Source: Candidatus Babelota bacterium
GTDB lineage: Bacteria > Babelota > Babeliae > Babelales > JABDEC01
DNA length: 64,000 nt
Direction of reading: 5' to 3'
Assembly (NCBI GenBank): GCA_013286795.1
Contig: JABDFA010000001.1
Span: 104,970-168,969 of the forward strand
Part shown: positions 10,014 through 28,712 of the stretch, piece after piece
Layout of the letters: every line of letters starts with the position of its first letter
Numbering within the stretch: position 1 is the stretch's first letter
Made by a program: the position numbers and the translations under genes
Notes under the pieces: model-generated
Database searches by the model: none
The model's input: only the letters and a program-made list of their open reading frames with translations
What the model was told of the DNA's origin: nothing

Positions 10014-10070
10014 AAATTACCTTTATAATTTCATAATTTTTATTATATAAATAGTATAATAAAAATTATA

Positions 10071-10655: not shown

Positions 10656-10701
10656 AATATTTTAATTTTTTTTAAATTAAGTATATTTTATAATATAATT
10701 A

Positions 10702-12154: not shown

Positions 12155-12246
12155 CTTCGACAAGCTCAGCATGACCGGACTTTTTCTTTCTCTCCAGTCA
12201 TCCTGAGTGAAGCGCGTAAGCGCGAAATCGAAGGACGAACCATGAA
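12155..12246. repeat. GC-rich nested inverted-repeat element in the proS-xer intergenic spacer
   Basis: Outer arms are CTTCGA (12155-12160) and TCGAAG (12228-12233). Inner arms are CTCAGCATGAC (12165-12175) and GTCATCCTGAG (12197-12207). Ends with CGAACCATGAA (12236-12246), the same 11-mer found at 38005-38015. Confidence 0.55.
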
Positions 12247-12253
12247 AGTTTAA

Positions 12254-13159: not shown

Positions 13160-14408
13160 CGCAATTTTATTGATATTTCTATCTACACTACTATTAAATT
13201 TGGCTTTAATCTTTCCATATCGATTTTATTTTTTAGTTTTTATTTATTTGATTCCCTTATTATATTTAAACGAAAAAAAAAAGCTTAATATGTATAAAGG
13301 GATTTTTTGGGGGATTTTTTTTTATACTATACATTTTTATTATCTATTTATATTAATATATGAAAAGGGGGAAGGGCAATTTAGACTTTTTTTTATACCA
13401 ATTATTATATTATATTTTTCTATATATTCCGGTATATGGTTTTTCTTATCATCACAATTAAGTTATCTTATAAAAAACAGGTCTCTTGGGTTAATTATAT
13501 CAACCTATTTGTACATATGGTTTATTTATAATTATATATTTTGGATTTTTCAAGAAAAGTCTGGATATGTTTTTTCTTTACCTTGTTTGCCATTAGTACA
13601 TAACAGTAGATTTTTAAGCTATTTGAGTATTTGTGGATTGGGATTTTGTATCTGTTATATATTGATATTAAATTTATTCTTATATTTTAGCACTAGAAAC
13701 AAAAAAATATTAGTCATATGTCTAATGTTTGTAATTATTTTTTTATATAATCCATTGGACCTAAGAGTTGAAGAAGATCCTTTAAAAACCTATACTTTAA
13801 AAGTAAATGCAAAAAATAAAAATCCATATGAGCTCGCCCAATCAATAAAATGGGCAATTATAGATTTAGCTAATAAAATAGATTCTGAGCCTAAAGTTAT
13901 TTTGATGCCAGAATCATCTTTTCCTTTTGCTCTTAATGATTATATCGAAGTAATAGAATGGTGGTATTATGATCTTAAAGATAAAACAATTCATATTATT
14001 TTGGGATCACATCGTAGAGAAGGGGCTTTGCTTTTTAATACCGTATATCATTTATATGAAGGCAAGATAATAAATTTTTATGATAAAACAAATTTAATGT
14101 TTTTTTCTGAAAAAATACCAACCTTATGGAAAAAATTATATATATTTAATGATCTCTTTTTAAAAGATTGCCAAGAATTTTCTTCTGGAGATAAAAATAG
14201 CTATTTTAACATTGGAGAGATTAAATCAAGTGTTTGTATTTGTTCCGATTTATTTCTCAATAAACAAATACAAACTGATTGTGATATTATTTTGCTGTTC
14301 ATGAATTATAGTTGGTTTAGATTAAAATATATAAGAAGGTTAATAGATTTTTATGTTATTTTAAAAAGAAACCAGTTAAATAGGCCTTTAATTTGTGCAA
14401 ATTTCTAA
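13131..14408 (+). CDS. lnt: Apolipoprotein N-acyltransferase-like (polytopic membrane N-domain plus CN-hydrolase domain)
   Basis: The N-terminal ~200 aa are highly hydrophobic. The C-domain has Lnt-like catalytic contexts VILMPESSFPF (Glu), YDKTNLMFFSEKIP (Lys, compare Y.K..LVPFGE) and SVCICSDLF (Cys). It is shorter than typical Lnt and the start is uncertain (29-nt overlap with xer). Confidence 0.6.
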   Translation: MISFILDRLNAILLIFLSTLLLNLALIFPYRFYFLVFIYLIPLLYLNEKKKLNMYKGIFWGIFFYTIHFYYLFILIYEKGEGQFRLFFIPIIILYFSIYSGIWFFLSSQLSYLIKNRSLGLIISTYLYIWFIYNYIFWIFQEKSGYVFSLPCLPLVHNSRFLSYLSICGLGFCICYILILNLFLYFSTRNKKILVICLMFVIIFLYNPLDLRVEEDPLKTYTLKVNAKNKNPYELAQSIKWAIIDLANKIDSEPKVILMPESSFPFALNDYIEVIEWWYYDLKDKTIHIILGSHRREGALLFNTVYHLYEGKIINFYDKTNLMFFSEKIPTLWKKLYIFNDLFLKDCQEFSSGDKNSYFNIGEIKSSVCICSDLFLNKQIQTDCDIILLFMNYSWFRLKYIRRLIDFYVILKRNQLNRPLICANF

Positions 14409-15307
14409 CTTTTGATGATGCCATGAGCAAGTTCTTCTTTATAGAATATGTAAAGACCTATTAAAAGAAAAATTGTAGTTACAAGAAAATCCCAAGAAAT
14501 TCTCTCTGCAAAAATCAACCATTGTAAAATTGCTGTAAAAATTGGAGTTAGAAAGCCACAAAAAGATAAAAAAGTCGCTGTGTACTTCTTAAGTAATGAG
14601 CCATATAAATTGTAACAGATTATATTACCAATCAATATCAACATTATAATCATAAAAGCAAAATTCTTGAAGTTATATATAGGCACTTGATTCCAATTTT
14701 CAAGTATAAGTGATGTTGCGATAGAAAATATCCCACCCAAAAACATTGTTATCCCATTAATAGTAATTAAAGAGGGGTATTTATTTAGAGATTCTTTTAT
14801 AGTTATCCATGCAAAAGAGGAACTAACAACTGACAATATTATTAATATTTCCGGAATTGATATGTGCAAAAATTCTCCGGCTAATTTTTCCATAGGAGAC
14901 TGGGATAAAATTATTGGTATAAAGCTTAAAAATCCTATAACTAAACCAACTTTTTTCTTAAAATTAATTTTTTCATTAAACATATAATAAGCAAATATTG
15001 ATGTTATAAAAGGAGATAGATTAAACAAAAGAGATGTTTTTGCAGCAGAAACGTATTCCAAGGCTAAAAATTCAAATATATATGGAATATAGATATGCAA
15101 TATGGCTAAGGGGACAAAAAGTTTAAGATCACTTTTTTTTATCTTTAAACTTTGCCTGTCAAAAAAATATAGATATAAAAGCAGAGCTAGTCCTGCCAAA
15201 ATCATTCTAATTCCAACAAAAGCTATAGGGGCTGCATATGATATTGCAGCTTTTGCAAGTATAAAAGTTATTGCAAAAAGAAAGTATAAAATAAAAATTA
15301 AAAACAT
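14405..15307 (-). CDS. EamA/DMT-family permease (10 TM)
   Basis: 300 aa with two ~140-aa hydrophobic halves of the EamA pattern (..AKAAISYAAP.AFVGIRM..AG..LL.. and a second repeat). Confidence 0.75.
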   Translation of the reverse strand: MFLIFILYFLFAITFILAKAAISYAAPIAFVGIRMILAGLALLLYLYFFDRQSLKIKKSDLKLFVPLAILHIYIPYIFEFLALEYVSAAKTSLLFNLSPFITSIFAYYMFNEKINFKKKVGLVIGFLSFIPIILSQSPMEKLAGEFLHISIPEILIILSVVSSSFAWITIKESLNKYPSLITINGITMFLGGIFSIATSLILENWNQVPIYNFKNFAFMIIMLILIGNIICYNLYGSLLKKYTATFLSFCGFLTPIFTAILQWLIFAERISWDFLVTTIFLLIGLYIFYKEELAHGIIKS

Positions 15308-15313
15308 GATTTG

Positions 15314-15967
15314 TTAAACTAAACACTTTTCTTTAGAATATTCAGTATATTCTAAAATTATATCAGCTAGTTCAGGCAATAAGCAACAGGATTCAACAAA
15401 TTCTTTGTGTAATTTTTGTCTTCTTCTTTTAGGCTCTTGCTTTATTAATTCAACCATAGCTTGTGTTTCGTTGGCCACCATTTCAGCATATCTAAAATTG
15501 GAGATCTCTAAATCAAAAGAAGCGCCTGCATATAGCAATAGCTTTGCTATAGTTATATTGCCTCTAGCCACTGCCCAATTTAGAGCAGTATCCCCTTTCC
15601 AATCTTTAATATCATAATTAGCATTGGCATCTAGAAGTAATTTCACTATTGCTTCATTTTTATTTATAGTGGCATGTATTAAAGCTGTATAACCACAGTT
15701 ACTTTGAATATCAGTGTCAGCCTCATTATCTAGCAGTAGTTTTACTATAGTTGCATAACCCTTGCTTGCAGCTTCAATTAAAGCTGTTTCATTAATCAAG
15801 TCAGGCTGATGATTTACATCTGCATACTCATCTAGAGCCTTCTGGACAAGTTTTATATTTCCTTCTTGGGCACCCCTGATGAGCATTTGATCAGGATTTT
15901 CGTCCATGCTATAAATTGATCCAATAGACCCTAGGCATATAAATGATAGTAATAATTTAAGTTTCAT
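15314..15967 (-). CDS. Leader-bearing ankyrin-repeat protein (family member 1) with C-terminal LLPELADIILEYT motif
   Basis: ANK repeats (TALIEAASKGYATIVKLLLDNEADTDIQ, YTALIHATINKNEAIVKLLLDANANYDIKD, DTALNWAVARGNITIAKLLLYAGAS). The start is set at ATG 15967-15965 (MKLKLLLSFICLGSIGSIYSM), preceded by GGAGG. The track start at 16069 adds an unsupported extension. Confidence 0.85.
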   Translation of the reverse strand: MKLKLLLSFICLGSIGSIYSMDENPDQMLIRGAQEGNIKLVQKALDEYADVNHQPDLINETALIEAASKGYATIVKLLLDNEADTDIQSNCGYTALIHATINKNEAIVKLLLDANANYDIKDWKGDTALNWAVARGNITIAKLLLYAGASFDLEISNFRYAEMVANETQAMVELIKQEPKRRRQKLHKEFVESCCLLPELADIILEYTEYSKEKCLV

Positions 15968-16146
15968 AATAAACCTCCAAAATCTATAAAAAATAAGATA
16001 TATAACTATTATTTTATAGACAAATAGTAAAAAGTCAAGTGCTAATTGTTTTGGAATTTTTATCCTCATAATTAATTTGTTGATTATTGCCCTTCTTGTT
16101 TTATATCCTAAAGAAAAGGGGAACCCTAAACATTAGGGAGAGTGGT

Positions 16147-16557
16147 ATGGAAAACTTGTCTTTGTCCTATTCTAATGAACAAAATATATTATATCTGCAA
16201 AATCAATTTTTAATAAATGGATTTCATTATTTTAAAGTTAAAAACATTTTAGATGGAAGAAAAATAATTTTAACCATGTTAAACTCTCTAAATTATTATA
16301 ATAATATTGCATGCTTAACTTCTAATAATAATGAATTTAGAGAAAATGTTTTTGATATTTATTACACTTTAACAAAAGAAAACTCTACAGAAAATATTGA
16401 TAATTTAGTAAATTTCTTTTTAGAAACTTTTGATTTCGATTTTATGTGGATAGAGGAATCAAAAGATTTTATAGAAACAAGTTGGTATAAAATCTTTAAA
16501 CAACATTTAATTGATTTTAATTTTTATAAAGTTATACCCATTATGATAATCTCTTAA
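16147..16557 (+). CDS. Hypothetical protein (no recognisable domain)
   Basis: Open frame. ATG at 16147 is preceded by GGGAGAG; the TTG at 16087 in the track is less likely. N/F/Y-rich and without a signal peptide. Confidence 0.5.
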   Translation: MENLSLSYSNEQNILYLQNQFLINGFHYFKVKNILDGRKIILTMLNSLNYYNNIACLTSNNNEFRENVFDIYYTLTKENSTENIDNLVNFFLETFDFDFMWIEESKDFIETSWYKIFKQHLIDFNFYKVIPIMIIS

Positions 16558-16571
16558 ATATTAGGATAAAA

Positions 16572-17051
16572 TTGATAATTTTAGGTATAGATCCTGGATT
16601 GCATATTTCAGGATATGCGGTTATAAAAAAAAACGGATCACAAATTATATTGATAGAGCATGGTTTTTTAAAAATGAATCCTACAAAATCAATACCAGAA
16701 CGTATTTTAGAATTTCACTCTTATTTTGATCATAAGATTAAGATTTTTGATGTTTCTGTCGTTTCACTTGAAACCCCATTTCTTGGTCGCAATGCCCAAA
16801 ATTTTTTGAAACTAGGTTACTTGAGAGGAATATTATACCTTTTGTCAAAACAGAATGATTTAAAAATTCATGAGTTTTCACCCAGACAAATCAAGCAATC
16901 TATCACAGGTTTTGGGGGGGCAGGAAAAGATCAAGTAGCACGAGTTATCTTACAATTTTTTCCAGCATTGCAGATGCCAAAAAAATTGGATGTTACAGAT
17001 GCCATAGCTATAACTTTATGTGGTGTCTGGAAGTCAAATCTAAGATTATAG
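16572..17051 (+). CDS. ruvC: Crossover junction endodeoxyribonuclease RuvC
   Basis: (M)IILGIDPGLHISGYAVIKK... , ..LETPFLGRNAQNFLKLGYLRG.., GFGGAGKDQV and DVTDAIAIT carry the RuvC acidic catalytic residues. TTG start. Confidence 0.9.
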   Translation: MIILGIDPGLHISGYAVIKKNGSQIILIEHGFLKMNPTKSIPERILEFHSYFDHKIKIFDVSVVSLETPFLGRNAQNFLKLGYLRGILYLLSKQNDLKIHEFSPRQIKQSITGFGGAGKDQVARVILQFFPALQMPKKLDVTDAIAITLCGVWKSNLRL

Positions 17052-17651
17052 TTTTGATCTTAATTCTGGAGCAATAGTTATTGGATTTTGATCTTTATTA
17101 TTTTTATCAAGTTTAATAAAGGGTATAGGATTATAGTTAGAACCTTCTGTCATATATTTGTAACAATTGAAGTAGTAATTAATTATTTTTATTTTAATTT
17201 CTGATTTAGCTTTATCTACTTTTTCTTTATAAGCTTTTGCTATTTTAATTTGATCTGAACTATAGTTATTGGTTAAGATGACTTTTTCTGCATCACTTTT
17301 AGCTTTAGAAAGAGCATTCAAATAAGCAATAGATAGTTTTTTGTATTCATCGCAAGATTCTTGAGTGATTTTATCGAATTTATTATCATAGTCTCTATTG
17401 GCCACGTCTACGAATAGTACATTTATTGATTTAATTAAATTTTTTATTTTTTCTTTAGACTCTTCAGGTAATATTGAGTTTAAAGGAGGCTCATAAATTG
17501 TTTTAGGATTTACCTCTAATAAAAATAAATTTAATATTTCTTCTACAGCTCGTTTTTTTTCTTTATAATCAAATGTCTGAAATTCTTTTTTCCAATCAGC
17601 ACAATATAAGTTAGTAGTAAATGTTATAAATATTAAAACCTTTTTGATCAT
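17046..17651 (-). CDS. Hypothetical exported protein
   Basis: N-terminal signal-like MIKKVLIFITFTTNLYCADW; the remainder is K/E-rich and probably helical. No family recognised. Confidence 0.5.
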   Translation of the reverse strand: MIKKVLIFITFTTNLYCADWKKEFQTFDYKEKKRAVEEILNLFLLEVNPKTIYEPPLNSILPEESKEKIKNLIKSINVLFVDVANRDYDNKFDKITQESCDEYKKLSIAYLNALSKAKSDAEKVILTNNYSSDQIKIAKAYKEKVDKAKSEIKIKIINYYFNCYKYMTEGSNYNPIPFIKLDKNNKDQNPITIAPELRSKL

Positions 17652-17710
17652 ATTTTCCCAAATTTAAATATGTCTGATAATGTGTATTATGTAAAAAGAA
17701 CTACTGTTTT

Positions 17711-18748
17711 TTAAAAACTAAAAAATTGATTCTTGAAATCATTTAAATCAAGTTTATTGTTATCCCTAAAAAGGTTACCATAATAAATTTTGTTTTCAAA
17801 GAGCTTAGGAGAAAAAAATATCTGCATATATTTAGCTGATGTCTTTTTATGTATAATTTTTTTTAACACATCAAAGCAATATATGTCAATATTTAAATTA
17901 TTTTGGTCATAATTGCAAAAAAAGATCTTTTTTGAAAGAAAAAGAGGCAAAAATGGCAAAATTGACATTTCAGATTCCTTGACAAGCAAAGGCAAGGCAA
18001 AGGTAAAAATCTTTTCACTATACCAATCCTCGCCCTCTTTTTTTAATCTATGGCAAAAGAAATTTATTGTATTTGCAAATTCATCTATATTTTTTTCATA
18101 TTCAATTACAAATCCTTCATCTGGGCCAATCATATTCAGAAAAAATATTGGGGTTTTTTCAAAGTTATAAACCAGTTTTTTTACTTTATGATTCATAACA
18201 AATATTTTATAAAAGCTTTTATGTTTTCTAAATTTAGTATCAGTATATTTACTTATATAAAAATATTGAGAATCAACTTTCTGTGGAAAAAAAATTTCTT
18301 CTTCTTCATCTTCCAAAACAGTTTCAATGCAATTATTATCGATATTCATTAATGCTATAAAACTCTTATTGCCTTTTTTTGCGCTAAAATAAAATTCATT
18401 TTTATTGATCCAGTTGATAAAGCTTATATTATATATTGGCTCAGAGAAATTAATTTTATTTAAAATATTATTCTCTAGGCTTCCTATCCTTATTATTCCA
18501 TTATCTTGAAAACTAAAATTTTGCGTATCAGGTATAACTTTGAAATCCCAAAAATTTATTTTACTTCTATTTATTATTTCTTGAATTTTATTATCATTTG
18601 GATTATAAACTAACAATTCTGATTGATTTTTATAGGTATGAACTAAAAAGATATATTTAGTTTTACTATCTATAGCTACTGGGTGCACAAATTCGCATGA
18701 AAGGGTTATATTAGTGTAAAAGAAGAAAAAAGTTATTATTTTAATCAC
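17711..18748 (-). CDS. Hypothetical exported protein (345 aa)
   Basis: Hydrophobic N-terminus MIKIITFFFFYTNITLSCEF. An N/F/K-rich body with beta-strand-like periodicity. No family recognised. Confidence 0.5.
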   Translation of the reverse strand: MIKIITFFFFYTNITLSCEFVHPVAIDSKTKYIFLVHTYKNQSELLVYNPNDNKIQEIINRSKINFWDFKVIPDTQNFSFQDNGIIRIGSLENNILNKINFSEPIYNISFINWINKNEFYFSAKKGNKSFIALMNIDNNCIETVLEDEEEEIFFPQKVDSQYFYISKYTDTKFRKHKSFYKIFVMNHKVKKLVYNFEKTPIFFLNMIGPDEGFVIEYEKNIDEFANTINFFCHRLKKEGEDWYSEKIFTFALPLLVKESEMSILPFLPLFLSKKIFFCNYDQNNLNIDIYCFDVLKKIIHKKTSAKYMQIFFSPKLFENKIYYGNLFRDNNKLDLNDFKNQFFSF

Positions 18749-18843
18749 TATTTACTCAATCTAAAATTTCTACTTCTTTTACTTATACATCAAAACAATT
18801 ATTTCATCTACAACACAAAAATACGAACTAATTCTGGCAGCAA

Positions 18844-19695
18844 CTATAAAGTTTGTTGTTTTTCTTTTGGACAAACAGCATACTCTGAAACTATCTCAGC
18901 CAATTCTGGCAATAAATATTCAGATTCAACAATTTTTTTAACATCTTGTCTTAATTTCTCTCTTTTTTCATATTCTTTTTTTATTAAGTCTTCTATAGAT
19001 TTATGTTTTACTATTTTTGCTATACCTAAAGCTGTTTGACCTCTATAATTTGTTAAATATAAAGAAGCTCCAGCTTCTAATAATAACTTTACTATGGCTT
19101 CTTGATTAGATACCGCAGCGAGCATTAAAGCTGTGTAGTCTCCATCATTTTGAATATCAGGATCAGCGCCATTTTCTAATAATACCTTTATTATATTTTC
19201 ACTATCTTTTATTATTACAGCCATTATTAAAGCTGTATCACCTCTTTTATTTTTATAATTTATATCTGCATTTCTCTGAATAGCACCAAGAACCAAAGAT
19301 ATATCTCCATTGGATGCGCCACTGAAAAGCATTTTATTTGCTTCATGATGCTGTCTTCCTTTTTTATATTCGTTTTCTATTAACAGTTTTATAGGAGCTG
19401 TTTTTGCTAAATCTAAAGCCGTTTTGCCCTTATTATTTTTTAAATCTAGAGAGACTCCAGAAGCTAATAATAGCTTTACCATGGCTTCATAAGAACTAAT
19501 TACAGCTTCCATTAAAGCTGTATAACCGTTTCCATCTGCAGTATTTATATCTGCGTTTTGCGCAAGAGCTTCTTGAACAAGTTTTAGATCGCCGCTTCTA
19601 GCACCTTTAATAAGCATTTTATCAGCATCGCTCATGCTATAAATTGCCCCAATAAATCCCAAGCAAATAAATGTGAATAATAATTTAAATTTCAT
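18844..19695 (-). CDS. Leader-bearing ankyrin-repeat protein (family member 2), two ANK blocks, C-terminal module ...KKEYEKREKLRQDVKKIVESEYLLPELAEIVSEYAVCPKEKQQTL
   Basis: Leader MKFKLLFTFICLGFIGAIYSM. Repeated G.TALM.AV......VKLLLE.GA..D. units. GGAGG RBS in the 9-bp spacer to the upstream gene. Confidence 0.9.
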   Translation of the reverse strand: MKFKLLFTFICLGFIGAIYSMSDADKMLIKGARSGDLKLVQEALAQNADINTADGNGYTALMEAVISSYEAMVKLLLASGVSLDLKNNKGKTALDLAKTAPIKLLIENEYKKGRQHHEANKMLFSGASNGDISLVLGAIQRNADINYKNKRGDTALIMAVIIKDSENIIKVLLENGADPDIQNDGDYTALMLAAVSNQEAIVKLLLEAGASLYLTNYRGQTALGIAKIVKHKSIEDLIKKEYEKREKLRQDVKKIVESEYLLPELAEIVSEYAVCPKEKQQTL

Positions 19696-19704
19696 GTCAA
19701 CCTC

Positions 19705-20331
19705 CTACAAAGTTCGTTTTTCTTTTGGACAAACAGCATACTCTGAAACTATCTCAGCCAATTCTAGAACTATATCAGCTAAATCTGGCAATAGATATTT
19801 GTCAGTAATTTCTTTATAAACATCATTTCTGAATTTTTCTCTTCTTGCATGTTCATTTTCTATTAGATCTATCATAGCAAGATATCTTCTTCTAGATCTA
19901 TATCTATATTCTTCTTTTTTTACTATATCTAAAGCTGTTTCTCCCTCACTATTTTTTAAATCTAAAGAAGCGTCATTTTCTAACAACAGCTTTGCTATAT
20001 CTTCTTTGGCAAAGAATGCAGCATTCATCAAAGCTGTATCGCCATTGTTATCTTGAATATCAGGATTAGCGCCATTATTTAATAACAACTTTACTATATA
20101 TACAGAACCATTAACTATAGCTTTATGTAAGGCTGTATAACCGTATCTATTTTGATAGTTTACATCAGCCTTATTTTTAAGGGCCTTTAGAACAAGTCTG
20201 ATGTCGCCTTCCTCAGCACCCATAATGAGCATTTCATTAGGAGTTTCATGTATGATGAATGTTTCTTCCATTGTATAAAGTGACCCAATAAACCCCAAAG
20301 ACAAAATTGAGAATAATAATTTAAATTTCAT
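19705..20331 (-). CDS. Leader-bearing ankyrin-repeat protein (family member 3) with a chimeric, partly duplicated C-terminal motif LLPDLADIVLE-LAEIVSEYAVCPKEKRTL
   Basis: Leader MKFKLLFSILSLGFIGSLYTM. ANK repeats (YTALHKAIVNGSVYIVKLLLNNGANPDIQD, DTALMNAAFFAKEDIAKLLLENDASLDLKN). The tail DNA at 19705-19765 is identical to the tail of 20482-21252 except one base. Confidence 0.9.
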   Translation of the reverse strand: MKFKLLFSILSLGFIGSLYTMEETFIIHETPNEMLIMGAEEGDIRLVLKALKNKADVNYQNRYGYTALHKAIVNGSVYIVKLLLNNGANPDIQDNNGDTALMNAAFFAKEDIAKLLLENDASLDLKNSEGETALDIVKKEEYRYRSRRRYLAMIDLIENEHARREKFRNDVYKEITDKYLLPDLADIVLELAEIVSEYAVCPKEKRTL

Positions 20332-20340
20332 GTTAACCTC

Positions 20341-20472
20341 CTATAAAATTTCTTTAGATATATCTCCATTGGATGCGCCCAAAATAAGCATTTTATTAGG
20401 AGCCTGACCCATGCTATAAATTGCCCCAATAAATCCCAAGCAAATAAATGTGAATAATAATTTAAATTTCAT
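20341..20472 (-). pseudogene. 43-codon remnant of an ANK-family gene (leader plus first half-repeat, then stop)
   Basis: The minus strand reads MKFKLLFTFICLGFIGAIYSMGQAPNKMLILGASNGDISKEIL*. The leader DNA is identical to that of 18844-19695, and GASNGDIS matches the internal string of that gene. It keeps the same GGAGG spacer but is too short for an ANK fold. Confidence 0.7.
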
Positions 20473-20481
20473 GTCAACCTC

Positions 20482-21252
20482 CTACAAAGTTCGTTTTTCT
20501 TTTGAACAAACAGCATACTCTGAAACTATCTCAGCCAATTCTGGCAATAAATATCCAGATTCAACAATTTTTTTAACATCTTGTCTTAATTTCTCTCTTT
20601 TTTCATATTCTTTTTTTATTAAGTCTGCTATAGATTTATATTTTTTTCTTTTTGCTATATCTAAAGCAGCTTCCCCCTTATTATTTTTTAAATCTAAAGA
20701 GACGCCAGCTTCTAATAATAGTTTTACTATTAGTGGATAATTATTATATACAGCCCACATTAAAGCTGTGTCACCTGTTTTGTCTTTAATATCAAGATTA
20801 ACGCCTCTATGCAGTAGTAGCTCCACAATAGATTTACAATTATCAGGTATAGCCCACATTAAAGCCGTAGCGTTGTTTTCACCGCCTTTAATATCAGGGT
20901 TGGCACCTCCGTCTAACAATAGTTCCACTATATTGTCATGGCGACACCTATGAGATGCAGCTAAAATTAAAGCTGTGTCGTCTTCATCATTTTGAAGATC
21001 AGGATCAGCGCCATTTTCTAGTAATAGTTTTACTATGGATTCATGACCATTATCTGCAGCTATCATTAAAGCTGTAAAGCCATATATATTTTTATAATTT
21101 ACATCAGCTTTCTCTTTAAGGGCTTCTTGAACAAGTTTGATGTCGCCTTCCCCCTCGGCGCCTCTAATGAGCATTTCATTGGGATCCTGCATACTGTAAA
21201 TTGACCCAATGAATACTAAAGATAGAAGCGATATTAATAATTTAATTTTCAC
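20482..21252 (-). CDS. Leader-bearing ankyrin-repeat protein (family member 4) with C-terminal LLPELAEIVSEYAVCSKEKRTL
   Basis: Leader MKIKLLISLLSLVFIGSIYSM. Five to six ANK units (FTALMIAADNGHESIVKLLLENGADPDLQN and others). The 3' 134 bp is near-identical to 18871-19004. Confidence 0.9.
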   Translation of the reverse strand: MKIKLLISLLSLVFIGSIYSMQDPNEMLIRGAEGEGDIKLVQEALKEKADVNYKNIYGFTALMIAADNGHESIVKLLLENGADPDLQNDEDDTALILAASHRCRHDNIVELLLDGGANPDIKGGENNATALMWAIPDNCKSIVELLLHRGVNLDIKDKTGDTALMWAVYNNYPLIVKLLLEAGVSLDLKNNKGEAALDIAKRKKYKSIADLIKKEYEKREKLRQDVKKIVESGYLLPELAEIVSEYAVCSKEKRTL

Positions 21253-21323
21253 AATAACCTCCCTATATTAGTAGAATCATATATATATAATATTATCAAA
21301 TAGAAAATGTACAGTCAAGGCTG

Positions 21324-22691
21324 TTATTCATTGTCTATAAACTTAGTAAGTTCTTTCTGGAATTCTAAATAAAGTGTACCTGTAGGACCATTACGTTGTT
21401 TACCTATTATTAATTCTGCCATAGATGGGTTTTCTGTATCTTGATTATAAACAACATCTCTGTATAAAAACATTATTAAATCAGCGTCTTGCTCAATAGC
21501 ACCTGATTCTCTTAAATCAGAAAGCATGGGTCTTTTATCCATACGAGCATCTACGGCCCTAGAAAGTTGTGAAAGAGCTACAATGGGTATTTTTAATTCT
21601 TTTGCCAACCCTTTTAAGGCCCTAGAAATCTCTGATACCTCCTGATGTCTATTTTCATGCTTTTTGGTTGAATGTAATAATTGAAGATAATCTATCACTA
21701 ATAACTGTAAATTGTGATCAACTTTTAACTTTCTAGCTTTGGCCCTAAGATCCATTATACTCAAGGCTGGGGTATCATCAATAAATAATTTATAGTTTGC
21801 TAATTTAGCAGCTACACTTGTAAGTTCGATCCATTCATCTGAAGATATTGTCGCATTTCTTATTTTATGCAAGGAAATATTTGATTCTGTCGACAATAAC
21901 CTCAAGGTTAATTGTTCTGCTGACATTTCAAGAGAAAATACTCCTACCGTAATACCATTAAGAGCTGCATTGGTTGCAATATTTAAGGCTAGGGAAGTTT
22001 TTCCCATAGAGGGTCTTGCTGCTAATATTATAAGATCCCCATTTTGCATACCCGAGGTAATTTCATCTAATTTTTTAAATCCAGAAGAGATCCCGGTTAT
22101 TCCTCTACTGTGAGCCTTAATATCTGAAAGATGAGAGAACGTCTTTTTTAACCATATATTTAATTGAACAAAAGACTGATTAGAACGCTTGTTGGAAATT
22201 CTAAATATTATTTTTTCTGCTGTATCTAGTACCGAGTCAATTTCTTCATCATTCTGAGAATAACAATTAGATATGATCTCGGTGGCTGATCCAATCAATT
22301 CTCTTAAAACAGACTTTTCTTTGATGATTTTTGCATGTTGCTCTACAAGACCAGATAAATGAATATCTTCTTGCAAAGAGATTAGATATACTAGCCCACC
22401 AACGAAATCTATTTGTTTTTTTTTTTCTAATTCGTCTTGCAATGTAACAAAATCAATTCTTTTCCCCTTTTGCGATAATTCTAACATAATTTCATATATT
22501 ATTTTATGACTTATATTATAAAAATCTAAAGGCAAGAGAATTTCGCCAACTTGATTAAAATTAGAATCATTTAATAAAATGGCACCTAAAACAGCTTTTT
22601 CTGCATCAACATTTGATGGAAGTTGTTTGCCCAAAACAGACTCTATTACATCGTTAGAGTTATTTTTTTTTGGATGAAATGTTTTAAGCAT
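21324..22691 (-). CDS. dnaB: Replicative DNA helicase DnaB
   Basis: LPSNVDAEKAVLGAILL (N-domain), Walker A AARPSMGKTSLALN, Walker B LLVIDYLQLL, then SRALKGLAKELKIPIVALSQLSR..E.R.DKRPMLSDLRESGAIEQDAD. Confidence 0.95.
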   Translation of the reverse strand: MLKTFHPKKNNSNDVIESVLGKQLPSNVDAEKAVLGAILLNDSNFNQVGEILLPLDFYNISHKIIYEIMLELSQKGKRIDFVTLQDELEKKKQIDFVGGLVYLISLQEDIHLSGLVEQHAKIIKEKSVLRELIGSATEIISNCYSQNDEEIDSVLDTAEKIIFRISNKRSNQSFVQLNIWLKKTFSHLSDIKAHSRGITGISSGFKKLDEITSGMQNGDLIILAARPSMGKTSLALNIATNAALNGITVGVFSLEMSAEQLTLRLLSTESNISLHKIRNATISSDEWIELTSVAAKLANYKLFIDDTPALSIMDLRAKARKLKVDHNLQLLVIDYLQLLHSTKKHENRHQEVSEISRALKGLAKELKIPIVALSQLSRAVDARMDKRPMLSDLRESGAIEQDADLIMFLYRDVVYNQDTENPSMAELIIGKQRNGPTGTLYLEFQKELTKFIDNE

Positions 22692-22696
22692 TCTTT

Positions 22697-23140
22697 TTAT
22701 TCTGAAATAACTTTAAGTAAAAATTTAGGTTTCAATTGGTTAGATAACTTTACAGTAACCTCAAATGAGCCTTGTTTTTTTATAGGCTTTTCTAGTTCAA
22801 CTTGATTTTTGGATATTTTTATTCCTTCTGTATCCAATAAATTTACTATGTCAGAAGAATTAATGGCACCATACAACTTTTCTTTATCATGCATTTTTCG
22901 CTTTAATGTTATCTTTAATGCTTTTATTTTTTCTGCAAGCATAGAAGTTTTGGTTGCTACTGCTTCTTTTCTATTTTCAATAGTTTTGACTTTATTAAGA
23001 TAAAGTTGCTCATTTTCATTTGTAATTACTACACCTAGTTTTTTTGGAACTAAAAAATTGGTGGCGTAACCTTCTTTAACTTTTATAATTTCTCCGGGTA
23101 TGCCTACTCTTTCTACATCTTTTAATAAAAATACTTTCAT
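22697..23140 (-). CDS. rplI: 50S ribosomal protein L9
   Basis: MKVFLLKDVERVGIPGEIIKVKEGYATNFLVPKKLG is the canonical L9 N-domain. 147 aa, directly upstream of dnaB. Confidence 0.9.
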   Translation of the reverse strand: MKVFLLKDVERVGIPGEIIKVKEGYATNFLVPKKLGVVITNENEQLYLNKVKTIENRKEAVATKTSMLAEKIKALKITLKRKMHDKEKLYGAINSSDIVNLLDTEGIKISKNQVELEKPIKKQGSFEVTVKLSNQLKPKFLLKVISE

Positions 23141-23224
23141 GGTTATCCTATAATTAATAATTTAATTAATTATAGTATACTCAAAAAAAGCAATTTTTTA
23201 AAATTTATACTAATTTATTCTAGG

Positions 23225-24337
23225 TTATTTTTGTTTTGGACAAACTGCATACTCTGAAACTATATTAGCTAAATCTGAAGGTAGATACTTATCAACAATT
23301 TTTTTAACATCTTGTCTTAATTTCTCTCTTTTTTTATATTCATTTTCTATTAGTTCTATGTTATATTCATTTCCTATACCTCTCGCATAATCTAATGCGG
23401 TTTTACCATCTTTATCTTTTAAATCTAAATCAGCACCAGCTTCTAACAAGAGTTCTACTATGACTTTATTATATTTATTAGCAGCCAACATTAAAGCTGT
23501 ATCTCCTCGATTGCTTTTAATATTAGGATTAGCACCATTTTCTAATAAAAAATTCACCATTTTATTATCTTGACTTCTTGTAGCATACATCAAAGCTGTC
23601 CACCCACTTTCGTCTTGATAATTTATATTTGTTTGATAATTTATATTTGCAGCAATTTTTTTATTACCAAACATAGCACTTTTAACTGAAGTCAATATTG
23701 AAGCTATATAACCCTCTTTATAATCCTCTTTTTTTTGTCCAATAGATTCTCGAACCTGTTCAAAATTCCTTGTTGATGCACCACCCAAGAGCATTTCATG
23801 CTGTCTTCTGTATCTTAGATATTCACGAGCTGTTTTTCCCTCTTTATTTGGTAAATCTAAATTAGCGCCTTTATGTATCAATAATTCTCTTATATCTTCA
23901 TGATTCATAATTGCAGCATACATTAAAGCTGTATAACCTTCATTATTTTGAATATTAGGGTTAGCGCCATTTTCTAATAATAGTTTTGCTGTACTATAGG
24001 CTACATCACAGCCTATATAATAGCCCTTATAAGGCCTTGATGCGACATACATTAAAGCTGTATAACCTTGATTATTTTGAATATCAGGATTAGCACCCCT
24101 ATCTAATAGTAGTTTTACTATTCCTGTATTGTATTTAAGACCACTCCACATTAAAGCTGTCCAACCATGTCTATCTTTATAATTTATATCTGCTTTTTGC
24201 TCAAGAGCTTCTTGGACAAGTTTGATATCATCAATTTCTGAACCTCTAATGAGCATTTCATTGGGTGATTCACTCATGGTATAAAGTGATCCAATAAATC
24301 CCAAAGATGTAAGCGATATCAATAATTTAAATTTCAT
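23225..24337 (-). CDS. Leader-bearing ankyrin-repeat protein (family member 5, 370 aa) with C-terminal LPSDLANIVSEYAVCPKQK
   Basis: Leader MKFKLLISLTSLGFIGSLYTM. Two ANK blocks separated by a non-ANK linker. C-terminal module ENEYKKREKLRQDVKKIVDKYLPSDLANIVSEYA. Confidence 0.9.
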   Translation of the reverse strand: MKFKLLISLTSLGFIGSLYTMSESPNEMLIRGSEIDDIKLVQEALEQKADINYKDRHGWTALMWSGLKYNTGIVKLLLDRGANPDIQNNQGYTALMYVASRPYKGYYIGCDVAYSTAKLLLENGANPNIQNNEGYTALMYAAIMNHEDIRELLIHKGANLDLPNKEGKTAREYLRYRRQHEMLLGGASTRNFEQVRESIGQKKEDYKEGYIASILTSVKSAMFGNKKIAANINYQTNINYQDESGWTALMYATRSQDNKMVNFLLENGANPNIKSNRGDTALMLAANKYNKVIVELLLEAGADLDLKDKDGKTALDYARGIGNEYNIELIENEYKKREKLRQDVKKIVDKYLPSDLANIVSEYAVCPKQK

Positions 24338-24346
24338 ATTAACCTC

Positions 24347-25276
24347 CTATGAAAGTTTTTTTTCTATTAGATCTACTATAGATTTATTTTCTTTTTCTAT
24401 TGCTATATCTAAAGCTGTGTGACCATATTGATTTGTTAAATATAAAGCAGCACCAGCTTCTAATAACAGCTTTGTTGTGTCTACTTGACTAAATGCAACT
24501 GCCAACATTAAAGCTGTATAACCTTGATTATTTTGAATATTAAGATTGGCACCATTCTTCAATAATAACTTTAATATATCTCCTTGAGCAAGCATTAAAG
24601 CCGTCAAACCATTTTTATCTTTATAATTTACATCTGCACCATCTTGAAGAGCTTTTTGAACGAGTATTATATTATTATCTTGCGCACCCTTTAAAAGCAG
24701 CTGATTTGAAGGATCTTTTTGTTTTGAATAATTTGCATATTCTAGAACTATATTAGCCAAATCTGGCAATAGATATTTGTCAGTAATTTCTTTATGAACA
24801 TTCTGTCTGAATTTCTCTCTTTTTTCATATTCTTTTTTTATTAAATCTTCTAAAGATTTATATTTTTCTTTTTTTGCAATATCTAAAGCTGTTTGACCAT
24901 ATTGATTTGTTAAATCTAAAGAAGCACCAGATTCTAACAACAGTTTTACTATAGTTTCTCGAGAAAGAGATGCAGCGAACATTAAAGCTGTATAGCCATT
25001 ATTATTTTGAATATCAGGATCAGCGCCATTATTTAATAACAACTTTGTCATATATAAATTTGCAGCACTCATTAAAGCTGTATTACCATATATATTTTTA
25101 TAATTTACATCAGCTTTCTTTTTAAGGGCTTCTTGAACAAGTTTCATATCACCATTTTCAGCGCCCCTAACAAGCATTTCATTAGGAGTTTCATATCGGA
25201 TGAATGTTTCTTCCAGTGTATAAATTGACCCAATAAATCCCAAACAAATAAATATGAATAATAATTTAAATTTCAT
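24347..25276 (-). CDS. Two-module ankyrin-repeat protein (family member 6): a complete leader-ANK-motif unit fused in frame to a second, leaderless and motif-less ANK unit
   Basis: Leader MKFKLLFIFICLGFIGSIYTL. The internal module KKEYEKREKFRQNVHKEITDKYLLPDLANIVLEYANYSKQK (motif at nt 24734-24772) is followed by DPSNQLLLKGAQDNNIILVQKALQDGADVNY, which resembles the mature N-terminus of other members. The protein ends DLIEKKLS. Confidence 0.9.
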   Translation of the reverse strand: MKFKLLFIFICLGFIGSIYTLEETFIRYETPNEMLVRGAENGDMKLVQEALKKKADVNYKNIYGNTALMSAANLYMTKLLLNNGADPDIQNNNGYTALMFAASLSRETIVKLLLESGASLDLTNQYGQTALDIAKKEKYKSLEDLIKKEYEKREKFRQNVHKEITDKYLLPDLANIVLEYANYSKQKDPSNQLLLKGAQDNNIILVQKALQDGADVNYKDKNGLTALMLAQGDILKLLLKNGANLNIQNNQGYTALMLAVAFSQVDTTKLLLEAGAALYLTNQYGHTALDIAIEKENKSIVDLIEKKLS

Positions 25277-25324
25277 GTCAACCTCCCCATTAACTTTATA
25301 TTAAAAATTCATAATAGTAAATAT

Positions 25325-25354
25325 ATTATACCCTAGCAAGATAAAAAGAAGCAA
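25325..25354 (-). promoter_or_regulatory. Candidate promoter for the ANK6-ANK5(-rplI-dnaB) transcription unit
   Basis: On the minus strand: TTGCTT (25354-25349), an 18-nt spacer, then perfect TATAAT (25330-25325), ~50 nt upstream of ATG 25276. The -35 element is weak. Confidence 0.3.
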
Positions 25355-25441: not shown

Positions 25442-25888
25442 TCAATTGCTAATTATAAACTTTTGCAAAGGCTTATTTTGTTCAAAAACTAACTCTCTAT
25501 GAATATTCGTTTTAATTATTATTTCATTCTCGCTACCTGATTCTACCGTTAATGCTTCAATAGATAGCTCCGGATCATTTTTCTTTAATTTCAAAAGAGC
25601 ATCGTAATTTATTATATCACCATCCGGCCAATTTCCCTTAAAAATCACTTTTTCTGAATGATTTTCATATTTTTCTATGAGTGCATAATTATTTATACAA
25701 AAGTATGTACCAAACTTACAAAGAGCTTCTGTGGCCCTATATTGTTTTTCATATGTATATTTTTTTGCAACAGAATCCTGTAAAAGTGCTATATTTTGCC
25801 AATAATTAATAAAATATAGAGATATTATCGACAATACAAGTACTAAAACCAAAACTACAAAACCTTCTTTGTTTTTCATAATATTCAC
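25442..25888 (-). CDS. Hypothetical membrane-anchored protein, possibly a degenerate pseudopilin (last gene of the minor-pilin cluster)
   Basis: N-terminus MNIMKNKEGFVVLVLVLVLSIISLYF has a G-F-hydrophobic stretch but lacks the Glu/Asp at +5. The call rests mainly on context with the two upstream prepilin-like genes. Confidence 0.35.
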   Translation of the reverse strand: MNIMKNKEGFVVLVLVLVLSIISLYFINYWQNIALLQDSVAKKYTYEKQYRATEALCKFGTYFCINNYALIEKYENHSEKVIFKGNWPDGDIINYDALLKLKKNDPELSIEALTVESGSENEIIIKTNIHRELVFEQNKPLQKFIISN

Positions 25889-25917
25889 ATTCTAAAAATT
25901 CTAAGACTATGTTAGCT

Positions 25918-26412
25918 TTATATAGAAATAAGAAATACTTCTGATCTAGTAGACACAAGATTTTCAATTTTTTGCAAAAAGTTGTTTATTTTAAATTCTA
26001 TAGTTGTTTTTAAGAGCTTTTGATTTTCACTGACCCTAAATTCTAATCTATGTATATCTTTAGCGACCAGACTTTCGGTTTTATCTGCCCAGGTATCATT
26101 CATGGGATTATATTTTCCTATAGTTCTATACAGTCTATCTTGATCTAACTTCCAACCCACTTCATGATCTTTAGTTGAAAAAATTATTTCCTCCCTTTGT
26201 TGTTTTTTATAGCCATGATATAAACATTGGCGAATATCGTTATCTAAGAGATCAAGAGCTGTCCAGTACATTGTTTTTTGTGTGCAATTTTTGTATTTCG
26301 AGCCGTATTTACTATAGTTTTGTGCAGCAAACTGAAATATGGTCAAAATTAATAGCGAAGAAAGAAATATATATATTAATGTTTCTATTAATGTAAATCC
26401 TAAAGATTTCAT
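25918..26412 (-). CDS. Prepilin-type N-terminal cleavage/methylation domain protein (minor pseudopilin, GspJ/PilW-like size)
   Basis: MKSLGFTLIETLIYIFLSSLLILTIF is the canonical G|FTLIE prepilin peptidase motif followed by a hydrophobic helix. 164 aa. Confidence 0.7.
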   Translation of the reverse strand: MKSLGFTLIETLIYIFLSSLLILTIFQFAAQNYSKYGSKYKNCTQKTMYWTALDLLDNDIRQCLYHGYKKQQREEIIFSTKDHEVGWKLDQDRLYRTIGKYNPMNDTWADKTESLVAKDIHRLEFRVSENQKLLKTTIEFKINNFLQKIENLVSTRSEVFLISI

Positions 26413-26771
26413 ATTATTATTGCTGTTATCATACTTATTTGATGCTCTTTTTCTGTTTTCCAGTATGTGTTTATTTTTAGAACAATGAACTTATTTATGG
26501 TATTTTTCAAAATCTCAATTTTTATAGTAAAAATATCTACTTTTATCTCTTTTCTATCATATATTTTTATTTTACTGCCATTAATCTCTTCTATTATATT
26601 GTTTGAGATGTTTAACGCTCTTCTAAATAAATCTATCTCTTTCTCTTGTTTTATAAGTTGCCAGTTAGCGCAGGCCATAGATAAACAGATTATTGAAAAT
26701 ATTCCAATTGAAATTACTAGATCTATTAATAAAAATCCGCTATAATTATAAATATGATTATTGTTATACAT
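26409..26771 (-). CDS. Pseudopilin-like protein (GspI/PilV-like size) with a degenerate prepilin motif
   Basis: ...YSGFLLIDLVISIGIFSII: G-F-L-L-I-D, with Asp in place of Glu at +5, followed by a hydrophobic helix. 120 aa, with a 4-nt overlap with the downstream pseudopilin gene. Confidence 0.5.
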   Translation of the reverse strand: MYNNNHIYNYSGFLLIDLVISIGIFSIICLSMACANWQLIKQEKEIDLFRRALNISNNIIEEINGSKIKIYDRKEIKVDIFTIKIEILKNTINKFIVLKINTYWKTEKEHQISMITAIII

Positions 26772-26831: not shown

Positions 26832-28712
26832 ATGAGATTTTTTAAATTTTTATTTATTTTATTTTTTTGCATTTTAAATGCTTCAAATAATTTATTTTCT
26901 TTGGACCCTTTTCATTTGTCTCCAGAAGATGCCAAATTTATTGATGAAATCTTAGGAACGATCCCTCCGGAAGAAAGAGATCAAATTAAAGGTCAGATTT
27001 TTGAAGAAGTTAATCGCTTTCAACAGATGACTCCACAAGATCAGGATCTTTATCTTCAAAATAAATTCAAAGAAATGGAAACCCTTACAACTAGTCCACA
27101 ATCTCCACAAGCGCCAAATCTTGGTCCAAATGAAAATGCTGAACCCATTAGTACAAAATTTCAAGAGACAGAATCAATCGCACCCGAATCTATATCTATA
27201 ACGCCTAAGATCGCAACCTCAAAAGCTGATACAAATTTATTAACTATTTTAGAATCATTATCTGATTCAATAGATTTATTGTTAATTAAGGTTAAAGCTC
27301 TGCCCAGAGTATCACAACAAAGAAAAGTTGAAAAAGAGTGGCTCAAGTTAAAAGCAGATTTACATGATCTAGAATCTTATCTTCGCATTGTTATATTTCA
27401 AAAAAAGGCATTGAAAGCTTTGTCATCAGATGAGTATAAAAATTTAAAAAATAATTTGAAAACTCTAGAAAGTAATCTTTCTGGCTTAGTTGAGAACTTG
27501 AGTATTTATTTACCAGATACAGCCGGACTAACTATTTCTTTTGGAGAAGAGGATTTTAGTGTCGAAAAAAAGAATGAAAGCAAGGCACAAAAAATATTAT
27601 CAGACATTATGTCATTACTAACAAATAACCTTGAAAGCAAAAATATTAATGAAGATCTAAAATCTTTATTAAAAAAACATGCCCCTGAAGAATTAAAAAA
27701 GAAAGAATTACCATTGGCTCCAGAACCGTATATGTCAGCTCAACGTAGTTACACCTCCCCTTCTTTTGGTGGTGGCGGTGGCTATGATTACAACCCAGGC
27801 TATTACCCTTACCGCCCTTCTTTTGGCGATGGTGCCGGTTCTACTCCATCAACACAGGGCGCTACCAAGTCAGGTTTAGAAACAAAAGATGAATCTAAAA
27901 AAGATAAAGGTGGTACTAGTGGTGGTGGTGGTGGCAAAGGCAAAGGTGCCTCAGGCGTTCCAGACAAGGATAAAGATAAGGACAAATCCAAAGACAAAAA
28001 AGAGGATAAAGACAAAGAAAAAGATAAAGACAAAAAAGAAGATAAAAAAGATAGTAAAGATAAGGTAAAAAAGAAAACAAGATCTGCTGCACAGAAAAAA
28101 AGATCTAAGTATGGCAATCCTGAAATAGAGGCATTTTTAAGAAAGCTAGAGGATTATTTAGTTGAATTTTCAAATTTAGTAGACAAAGACTCTGTAGACA
28201 TTTTACTTAAAGGTGAAGATAAAAAAATAAAAGATGATTTCAAAAAAGCAGCTGGTCTATATGATAATCATATACTAAAGTTATCAAGCCATATAGGAAA
28301 ACACTTAGGAAATCTACATAAAGACGCTAAACCTTTATTAATGAAGTCTATCAAGGAAATTTATGATGATCCTGATTACGAGCTTGAAAAGACTTACAAA
28401 AAAATTAAGACTTCTTTATTAATTCTTGAAGGTCAAGATTTAAAGGGTGACCAAAAAGAACAAAAGCGTATCTTAGAAGATCTTAATGCTAAGATGATTC
28501 GACTCAAACAGGATCTAGGTTTAGAGCCTAAGCAAAATGTTGCAACTCAACAACAATTTGGTAGTCCGGTTACAAGCAACCCTGACCTAGCTCAAGGTAA
28601 TACAGATGTTGAATATGAAGTCGAAGGTGATGGTCCAATGTTTGATAATGATGGCAACGCTTATTTCTCTAATTTGGATCAGGATAAAATATCAGATAAA
28701 CTAGGAGCGTAG
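26832..28712 (+). CDS. Large exported low-complexity protein (626 aa) with a G/Y/P-rich segment and a (K/D/E)n tract
   Basis: Signal-like MRFFKFLFILFFCILNASNN. Central FGGGGGYDYNPGYYPYRPSFGDGAGS, then GGGGGKGKGASGVPDKDKDKDKSKDKKEDKDKEKDKDKKEDKKDSKDK. No family recognised. Confidence 0.6.
   Translation: MRFFKFLFILFFCILNASNNLFSLDPFHLSPEDAKFIDEILGTIPPEERDQIKGQIFEEVNRFQQMTPQDQDLYLQNKFKEMETLTTSPQSPQAPNLGPNENAEPISTKFQETESIAPESISITPKIATSKADTNLLTILESLSDSIDLLLIKVKALPRVSQQRKVEKEWLKLKADLHDLESYLRIVIFQKKALKALSSDEYKNLKNNLKTLESNLSGLVENLSIYLPDTAGLTISFGEEDFSVEKKNESKAQKILSDIMSLLTNNLESKNINEDLKSLLKKHAPEELKKKELPLAPEPYMSAQRSYTSPSFGGGGGYDYNPGYYPYRPSFGDGAGSTPSTQGATKSGLETKDESKKDKGGTSGGGGGKGKGASGVPDKDKDKDKSKDKKEDKDKEKDKDKKEDKKDSKDKVKKKTRSAAQKKRSKYGNPEIEAFLRKLEDYLVEFSNLVDKDSVDILLKGEDKKIKDDFKKAAGLYDNHILKLSSHIGKHLGNLHKDAKPLLMKSIKEIYDDPDYELEKTYKKIKTSLLILEGQDLKGDQKEQKRILEDLNAKMIRLKQDLGLEPKQNVATQQQFGSPVTSNPDLAQGNTDVEYEVEGDGPMFDNDGNAYFSNLDQDKISDKLGA

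Follow-up and report, generated by a model that had tools for sequence, protein, structure and literature searches.

Near-identical gene ends and a chimeric tail point to recombination among tandem ankyrin-repeat paralogs of a Babeliales genome

How do the members of a tandem gene family come to share stretches of almost identical DNA when the bodies of the same genes are far less alike? This question is raised by an array of ankyrin-repeat (ANK) genes in a 64,000-nucleotide stretch of contig JABDFA010000001.1 from a Babeliales (Dependentiae) genome, here called the window, in whose numbering all positions are given (Table 1). The array is a lineage-specific tandem family encoding ankyrin-repeat proteins with predicted Sec-type leaders, and its products are probably secreted host-interaction effectors. 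An earlier reading of the bare sequence (the original prediction) had claimed recombination among the ANK paralogs, and we find support for this in two near-identical blocks, in an ANK3 tail that is joined out of register and in an in-frame gene remnant (REM).

Two near-identical blocks of gene ends stand out from the paralog background

Self-comparison of the ANK region (15-26 kb, matches of at least 100 nt), a check that the original prediction had proposed, returned a paralog background with a median identity of 72% and a 99th percentile of 81%. Two blocks of 99% identity lie far outside this family background, and both reproduce the matches that had been claimed, down to the number of mismatches. 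Block A pairs 19633-19765 with 20410-20542 at a constant offset of 777 and is identical at 132 of 133 positions, with a longest exact run of 95 nt (19633-19727) and a sole mismatch at 19728 G versus 20505 A. It spans, as predicted, the tail end of one gene (61 nt including the stop codon), a 9-nt spacer and the leader of the next gene (63 nt). Block B pairs 18871-19004 with 20506-20639 (132/134 identical; mismatches 18920 T/20555 C and 18992 T/20627 G), and its similarity runs on at 91% over 238 nt (18858-19095 versus 20493-20730). The ANK4 tail is the hub of these relationships, matching the tails of both ANK2 and ANK3. All three differences inside the two blocks are non-synonymous, and the identity covers synonymous sites as well as the variable tail end.

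A third copy of the leader type lies at the start of ANK6, where 25219-25286 is identical at 65 of 68 positions to 19638-19705 and to 20415-20482. Beyond this copy and blocks A and B, the window holds no further repeat of appreciable length that is at least 95% identical. The 777-bp unit is present only in the form R-X-R (1.17 copies), and the flanks of the two R copies are non-homologous on the tail side.

The ANK3 tail joins two tail types out of register

The original prediction had described the ANK3 tail as a junction of two tail types that breaks within a shared ATTCT, and the alignments bear this out. The segment 19761-19817 of ANK3 is identical at 55 of 57 positions to 24739-24795 in the internal tail of ANK6, including an exact 37-mer. 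The left part of the ANK3 tail is thus of the ANK6-internal type (KEITDKYLLPDLA.IVLEY...), while from 19765 downward, where the identity to ANK4 ends, it is of the ANK4 type; in a three-way comparison, ATTCT (19761-19765) is common to ANK3, ANK4 and the ANK6 internal tail. Aligned with MAFFT, the tails show a join that is 21 nt, or seven codons, out of register, and its product reads ...LADIVLE joined to LAEIVSEY.... A junction placed at a few shared bases and out of register is the pattern of a microhomology join, here with ATTCT and 21 nt. The ANK6-type tail recurs in protein P0014 of a third organism and is a genuine conserved variant of the family.

AlphaFold2 models ANK4 (predicted local distance difference test score, pLDDT, 87.9) as an ANK stack followed by two helices, a long one (206-231) and a short one (237-248). 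In the ANK3 model the terminal helix is lengthened to residues 182-199, which suggests with modest confidence that the chimeric tail forms one continuous helix about seven residues longer than that of ANK4.

A gene remnant, in-frame fusions and a tail relic

Between ANK4 and ANK3 lies REM, originally described as a 43-codon remnant that combines an ANK2-type leader with the ANK2 internal string GASNGDIS. Both parts of this description hold: the REM leader is identical to the ANK2 leader at 63 of 63 positions, and the DNA coding for GASNGDIS matches the second-module N-cap inside ANK2 at 37 of 42 positions (20356-20397 versus 19297-19338), with a 24-nt exact run. REM consists of a complete leader, the start of the N-cap (GQAPNKMLILGASNGDIS), then KEIL and a stop codon, its last five codons being tail-end-like, and it has no Pfam match. 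We read it as a putative internally deleted gene that is still in frame.

In ANK6 an N-cap without a leader directly follows a complete internal tail, and ANK2 and ANK5 have a common ...RQH(H)E... linker before their second N-cap. All three look like in-frame fusions of two neighbouring genes. Immediately past the ANK2 stop codon lies an in-frame LLPEL-coding relic with the core TGCCAGAATT, of which the window has only three copies (in the tails of ANK2 and ANK4 and in the relic itself) where 0.21 would be expected. We also observed that this relic and the chimeric junction of ANK3 break at the same C(C/T)AGAATT motif.

The shared tracts exceed both chance and the conservation seen in a relative

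Recombination tests had also been proposed originally. Our GENECONV-type permutation was restricted to the polymorphic columns in alignments that combined joints and tails of the window with those of its nearest relative, represented by the Ga0207097 contigs of JGI metagenome 3300020829, whose housekeeping flanks are 88-91% identical in DNA. The ANK4-REM and ANK3-ANK2 joints share a run of 44 concordant polymorphic sites that none of 5000 shuffles reached (largest 34), and the ANK2 and ANK4 tails share a run of 48 that none of 2000 permutations reached. Chance is rejected for block A and for the identity of the ANK2 and ANK4 tails. The permutation is also significant for ANK2-ANK3, ANK2-ANK5 and ANK4-ANK5, and the first ANK repeats of ANK4 and ANK6 are 94.7% identical over 76 nt (21063-21138 versus 25069-25144), a tract that holds an exact 34-mer (21080-21113 = 25086-25119), at which an independently assembled contig, discussed below, breaks. 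With these further tracts, mosaicism is general in the family.

The original prediction went on to speak of leaders, repeat blocks and tails being actively reshuffled. Gene ends are indeed exchanged, but the tracts that it flagged move no repeat blocks, and 'actively' would here be read from footprints rather than from population data. Shuffling of repeat blocks may show in side observations only, namely the 76-nt ANK4/ANK6 tract and a one-repeat indel: P0014 and P0160, near-identical proteins on ENA contigs of the third organism, differ by exactly one 33-residue ankyrin repeat (SLDKDGNTVLMWTARCGHETTVKLLLNKGAKLD).

Equal conservation of the tracts in relatives had been named at the outset as the observation that would speak against recent exchange. 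The relative has the same ANK family, with leaders, tails and 9-13-nt spacers, and its junctions reach at best 83.7% identity to block A and 82.3% to block B; a 47-nt tail core, the longest exact cross-genome match to the blocks, is the part that is equally conserved. This bears on the possibility that purifying selection on the nucleotides themselves (through translational coupling, the ribosome-binding site, the signal peptide or the tail motif) has kept the copies alike with no recent exchange. Such selection would fit the paralog leaders, which are 71-90% identical to each other against 72% in the gene bodies, the tail motif conserved in 19 cluster representatives, and the ANK3 leader, which matches that of its ortholog at 63 of 63 positions. 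Because this leader and the 47-nt core are identical in the relative, gene ends evidently evolve slowly. However, the ANK6-ANK5 and REM-ANK3 joints and all joints of the relative are only 55-84% identical to block A, the identity within the blocks extends to synonymous sites and the variable tail end while their few differences change amino acids, and an out-of-register chimeric tail cannot arise by selection. With the relative only 82-84% identical over the blocks, sequence selection cannot explain an identity of 99%. This alternative is largely refuted already, and we regard it as very improbable.

Dating relies on the only clear ortholog pair, ANK3 and the N-terminal part of its ortholog at positions 10151-10524 of the relative's contig L008, which differ at 20 of 374 nt (94.7% identity). 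At this rate 14.3 differences would be expected in the 267 nt of the two blocks, and three are seen (P = 4e-4). Slow leader evolution makes this clock unreliable for the leader, so that 'recent' is softer there. In the same comparison (19971-20344), 16 codons differ, 14 of them non-synonymously, and nine of these lie in codons 60-72 of the first ANK repeat, a cluster that could reflect diversifying selection or else a short patch of conversion. The relative's protein P0013 was ruled out as an ANK4 ortholog because its nucleotide identity is only 71-79%, and a scan of GTDB species genomes returned only unrelated ANK proteins of 29-39% identity.

Break points of independent contigs place the repeats in the read graph

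Paralogs that were mis-joined or collapsed in a short-read assembly could also give the impression of shared gene ends. Over 12214-18887 and 21080-23321 the window has a 100% match in Logan contigs (k=31) that were assembled independently from run SRR8433578, and the ends of these contigs coincide with the onset of repeated 30-mers (18887 = 18858+29; 21080; 23321 = 23292+29). These break points indicate that the repeats exist in the read graph; the inner joints are not thereby validated, and the independent contigs on record are the flanking Logan contigs, none of which carries ANK2, ANK3, ANK4 or REM. An artefact would also be in keeping with the relative's contigs, which likewise end within ANK arrays, and the sequence does not give the copy number of the 777-bp unit. 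On the other hand, the block copies differ at one and two sites and hence are not collapsed, the longest exact repeat (95 nt) can be spanned by ordinary reads, and a k-mer graph cannot mis-join at a chimeric junction with a microhomology of 5 nt. With two copies of block A, the assembled path would moreover be the only one that uses every unique segment once. Every reading frame and spacer is intact, and the unique parts agree fully with the independent assembly. An assembly artefact therefore appears quite improbable to us. Since such ANK arrays break short-read assemblies, effector counts from metagenome-assembled genomes are unreliable.

A proposed recombination pathway seeded by conserved gene ends

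The explanation that we favour, with a probability of roughly three in four, is recombination among the paralogs, combining gene conversion, illegitimate recombination and in-frame deletions, and seeded by the conserved gene ends. It builds on what is observed directly, namely the tracts with their junctions, the fact that they exceed chance statistically and the finding that the relative does not conserve them to the same degree. Paralogs resemble each other much more closely in tail, spacer and leader than in the gene bodies, and the exact matches of 30-95 nt in these ends suffice for homologous recombination. As part of the recombination machinery, RuvC is encoded in the window.

We postulate that a non-reciprocal exchange (gene conversion) pasted the 133-nt joint between ANK4 and a gene X onto the joint between ANK3 and ANK2, or the reverse; the direction, order and number of events are what we infer rather than see. 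One end of the exchange would have been resolved in register, at the end of the leader, and the other illegitimately, at a 5-nt microhomology 21 nt off register. The illegitimate end would have replaced the end of an originally ANK6-type tail in ANK3 and added one heptad to its last helix. A second tract would have homogenised the ANK2 and ANK4 tails, and an internal in-frame deletion would have cut gene X to the 43-codon remnant. As gene conversion would leave them, the near-identical tracts are bounded by much more diverged sequence and are younger than the divergence of the genes, judged by the cross-genome identities and the ortholog rate given above. Of the two processes named in the original prediction, unequal crossing-over or gene conversion, conversion is the better supported; the two full head-to-tail copies that a tandem duplication would leave are not present.

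For block A itself, a single insertion or duplication is a possible path, though not the one that we would expect. ANK4 would once have lain directly before ANK2, and a template switch or unequal sister-chromatid exchange would have departed from the ANK2 leader at codon 21, taken in some 644 bp of another array (the remainder of a remnant gene, the spacer and ANK3 to ...IVLE) and re-entered the ANK4 tail at an AGAAT microhomology 133 bp upstream, so that the insert came to be flanked by 133-bp direct repeats. This path predicts the R-X-R structure with its 777-bp offset exactly, including one boundary in conserved leader homology and another at a 5-nt microhomology, and it yields both copies of block A in one event, which for this block is as neat as conversion. 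It is further favoured by the place of the ANK3 ortholog, which in the relative follows a 290-aa ANK gene beside pseudopilin genes, while in the window ANK3 lies across L9-DnaB; the ortholog thus belongs to a different array, and ANK3 has moved between arrays. Against this, no near-identical source for ANK3 exists among the known proteins of the genome (the best is ANK6, at 64%), the donor locus must already have held a 22-codon stub upstream of ANK3, and block B and the other mosaic tracts are left unexplained.

Several considerations weigh against the conversion pathway. A gene conversion that ends out of register on one side is a less tidy event than insertion by one template switch would be. 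One assembly is the source for the junctions as well as for the copy number of the 777-bp unit. Slowly evolving gene ends mean that the identity is in part conservation, which makes the dating as recent approximate. Finally, orthologs of ANK2 and ANK4 above 53% identity are absent outside this genome in the collections searched, so that neither the direction nor the number of events can be polarised.

Architecture of the array and of its gene family

Array proteins share a common plan, with an MKFKLLF start and hydrophobic run, an N-cap (PNEMLIRGA..GDIKLVQEAL), ANK repeats and a conserved tail (...DLIKKEYEKREKLRQDVKKIVESGYLLPELAEIVSEYAVCPKEK..). Ankyrin families (Ank_2, Ank, Ank_4) are their only Pfam matches (E 1e-18 to 1e-44). 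In the conserved N-terminus MKFK is followed by a hydrophobic run of about 15 residues, which AlphaFold2 renders as a low-confidence helix and then a linker, and which by inspection is predicted to be a Sec-type leader. A lipoprotein leader was ruled out in the same way, the leaders of ANK3, ANK4 and ANK5 having no cysteine. AlphaFold2 gives the ANK stacks a pLDDT above 90 and models the tail as two helices, one long and one short, with a disordered basic end. A profile of this tail finds 19 proteins among 1.84 billion cluster representatives, and the family tail is C-terminal in every match except the ANK6 fusion. An F-box/PRANC identity of the tail was rejected, with no Pfam match even at E = 10. 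The tail module marks the family and may act in targeting or as a determinant of secretion.

Between adjacent genes there is a gap of exactly 9 nt, and the stop codon TAG overlaps the ribosome-binding site GGAGGT (TAGGAGGTTGACATG). Stop codon and spacer together make 12 nt, and adjacent genes therefore share a reading frame. The joint corresponds to no known RNA element (Rfam over the whole window gives two tRNAs only), and promoter-like and terminator-like matches are no commoner than in shuffled sequence. It is conceivable, but in our view unlikely, that this tail-TAG/GGAGGT-leader joint is maintained as a portable in-frame recombination module, beyond being a passively conserved gene end. 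If so, exchanges, fusions (ANK6, ANK2, ANK5) and deletions (REM) would mostly give translatable, exportable products, and the array would offer a bacterial analogue of exon shuffling by which a reduced-genome parasite diversifies its secreted ankyrin repertoire quickly.

Programmed cassette variation, in which silent donor cassettes feed an expression site as in Anaplasma msp2/p44 or Neisseria pilE/pilS, would likewise place conserved ends around variable middles, and the evidence for segmental conversion and one truncated copy (REM) would fit it. Yet all six array genes are complete, none of them lacking a ribosome-binding site, a start codon, a leader or a tail of its own. The sole promoterless truncated copy is a 43-codon relic without a variable region, and conversion has affected the conserved ends and not a hypervariable core. 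We consider a cassette system extremely unlikely.

Table 1. Positions of the array genes, shared tracts and junction features in the window.
Feature	Positions	Strand	Remarks
A15	15314-15967	minus	
In-frame LLPEL-coding relic	18826-18843	minus	follows the ANK2 stop immediately; 72 nt downstream of the LLPEL of ANK2
ANK2	18844-19695	minus	283 aa; two modules, fusion-like; first module ends ...LIENEYKKGRQHHE, then second N-cap ANKMLFSGASNGDIS
Block B copy, ANK2 tail	18871-19004	minus	similarity extends over 18858-19095
Block A copy 2	19633-19765	minus	ANK3 tail end, 9-nt spacer, ANK2 leader
9-nt spacer	19696-19704	minus	GAGGTTGAC on the gene strand; equivalents at 20332-20340, 20473-20481 and 24338-24346
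ANK3	19705-20331	minus	208 aa; chimeric tail, LLPDLADIVLE joined to LAEIVSEYAVCPKEKRTL
21 extra nt (7 codons) in ANK3	19753-19773	minus	made by the out-of-register join; one added heptad
Remnant (REM)	20341-20472	minus	43-codon in-frame open reading frame
Block A copy 1	20410-20542	minus	ANK4 tail end (61 nt including stop), 9-nt spacer, REM leader (63 nt)
ANK4	20482-21252	minus	256 aa; GTG start; secreted-type ankyrin gene
Block B copy, ANK4 tail	20506-20639	minus	similarity extends over 20493-20730
L9 and DnaB	21324-23140		
ANK5	23225-24337	minus	
ANK6	24347-25276	minus	
ANK6 internal 'type II' tail	24739-24848	minus	KEITDKYLLPDLANIVLEYANYSKQK; 88% identity over 110 nt
ANK6 leader and ribosome-binding region	25219-25286	minus	third copy of the ANK2/REM leader type

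Surroundings of the array

All named best matches of DnaB are from Candidatus Babeliales or Dependentiae, the best non-self match being 78% identical, and the window proteins, whose contig of 177,881 bp is in both NCBI and JGI/IMG, form singleton 90% clusters. Distant Babeliales keep the pseudopilin-L9-DnaB order and a DnaB gene close to RuvC, which is also present in the window, without any member of the ANK family; the arrays are thus lineage-specific occupants of variable slots in this backbone. Directly upstream of the ANK6 array lie three small pseudopilin-like genes (25442-26771, minus strand), one of which gives a weak match (19.6 bits, under the cutoff) to an N-terminal methylation motif. 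In the relative a 460-aa ANK gene of about 12 repeats is situated between two pseudopilin genes (L008 7207-8589), where the window has a 29-nt gap (25889-25917).

The 14-mer ATATATTTACTATT recurs about 35-50 nt upstream of the first gene in three separate ANK arrays of two genomes (window 25313-25326, minus strand; L008 about 9240-9253; contig L011 about 9140-9153). It overlaps a promoter-like match (25339-25311) and may be a promoter element of the family. Elsewhere on L011, which belongs to the relative, a perfect 756-bp tandem repeat (10016-11564), comprising a whole ANK gene and spacer, runs into the contig end; it stems either from tandem duplication in the very recent past or from a loop in the assembly. 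For this reason it was not used as independent proof of unequal crossing-over. An eighth ANK gene in the window (28981-29784, plus strand) has a signal-peptide-like N-terminus and a divergent tail (...LIPDVANIASDYW...) resembling that of distant members such as P0165.

Other repeat-bearing genes were observed further away. Two adjacent WD40 beta-propeller genes (400 and 386 aa; 5019-7363, minus strand) contain a 123-bp tandem repeat array (5142-5975) and have exact 30-43-mers in common; the pair is a second eukaryote-like repeat family with signs of internal exchange. A 626-aa protein with no Pfam match (26832-28712) has 18/36/48-bp repeats at 27962-28060 that code for a Lys/Asp/Glu-rich stretch.

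Discussion: comparison with known systems

The locus offers a base-resolved example of turnover in the large secreted ankyrin repertoires of Dependentiae, with gene-end conversion, microhomology joins, in-frame fusions and deletions, and gene movement between arrays that flank essential genes. How far do known systems share these features? Gene conversion and concerted evolution occur in bacterial multigene families, for example in the tuf and rrn copies. As in these, near-identical tracts with diverged sequence on either side would result when one paralog is copied onto another non-reciprocally; unlike in these, only short end-modules are homogenised, the bodies being about 72% identical, and one tract end is illegitimate. 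The antigen families Anaplasma msp2/p44, Borrelia vlsE and Neisseria pilE/pilS resemble the array in that conserved flanks guide recombination in a host-interaction family. The array differs from them in having no architecture of expression site and silent cassettes, and in exchanging its conserved ends rather than a variable core, and it gives no sign that switching is programmed. PRANC/F-box ANK proteins of poxviruses, Orientia and Wolbachia also have a short C-terminal helical module with an LP-x-L/E...I motif after the ANK repeats; in contrast to these, the tails described here have no profile match and about 12 helix residues after the LP motif, and the proteins have an N-terminal leader.

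Closer in phylogeny, the available portions of the published accounts give 126 ANK proteins for Babela massiliensis, 79 of them with a signal peptide, along with 37 tandem duplications, and 98 ANK proteins for Chromulinavorax destructans, 78% with a signal peptide. As far as these portions go, both organisms agree with the present one in phylum, in the combination of a signal peptide, here a predicted one, with ANK repeats, in tandem arrays and in type II secretion/pilus genes, while the C-terminal tail, the 9-nt chaining and the recombination footprints do not feature in them.

The ANK genes of Wolbachia evolve by homologous and illegitimate recombination that has left chimeric repeats and remnants, with short direct repeats at deletion and duplication junctions, as detected by Geneconv/RDP-type methods (Siozios et al. 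2013, PMC3563639). The present paralogs are alike in that they, too, belong to an intracellular bacterium and probably evolve by both kinds of recombination. They differ in that exchange has affected the gene ends outside the ANK repeats (tail, spacer, leader) in genes chained in tandem, in that the organism is a member of Dependentiae, and in their predicted Sec-type leaders and lack of prophage association. In this company the locus is a fairly ordinary example of the evolution of an effector family, which calls for no new class of mechanism; what sets it apart is that its genes are chained in frame, that the chimeric tail preserves the heptad and that the tail module is narrow and uncharacterised.

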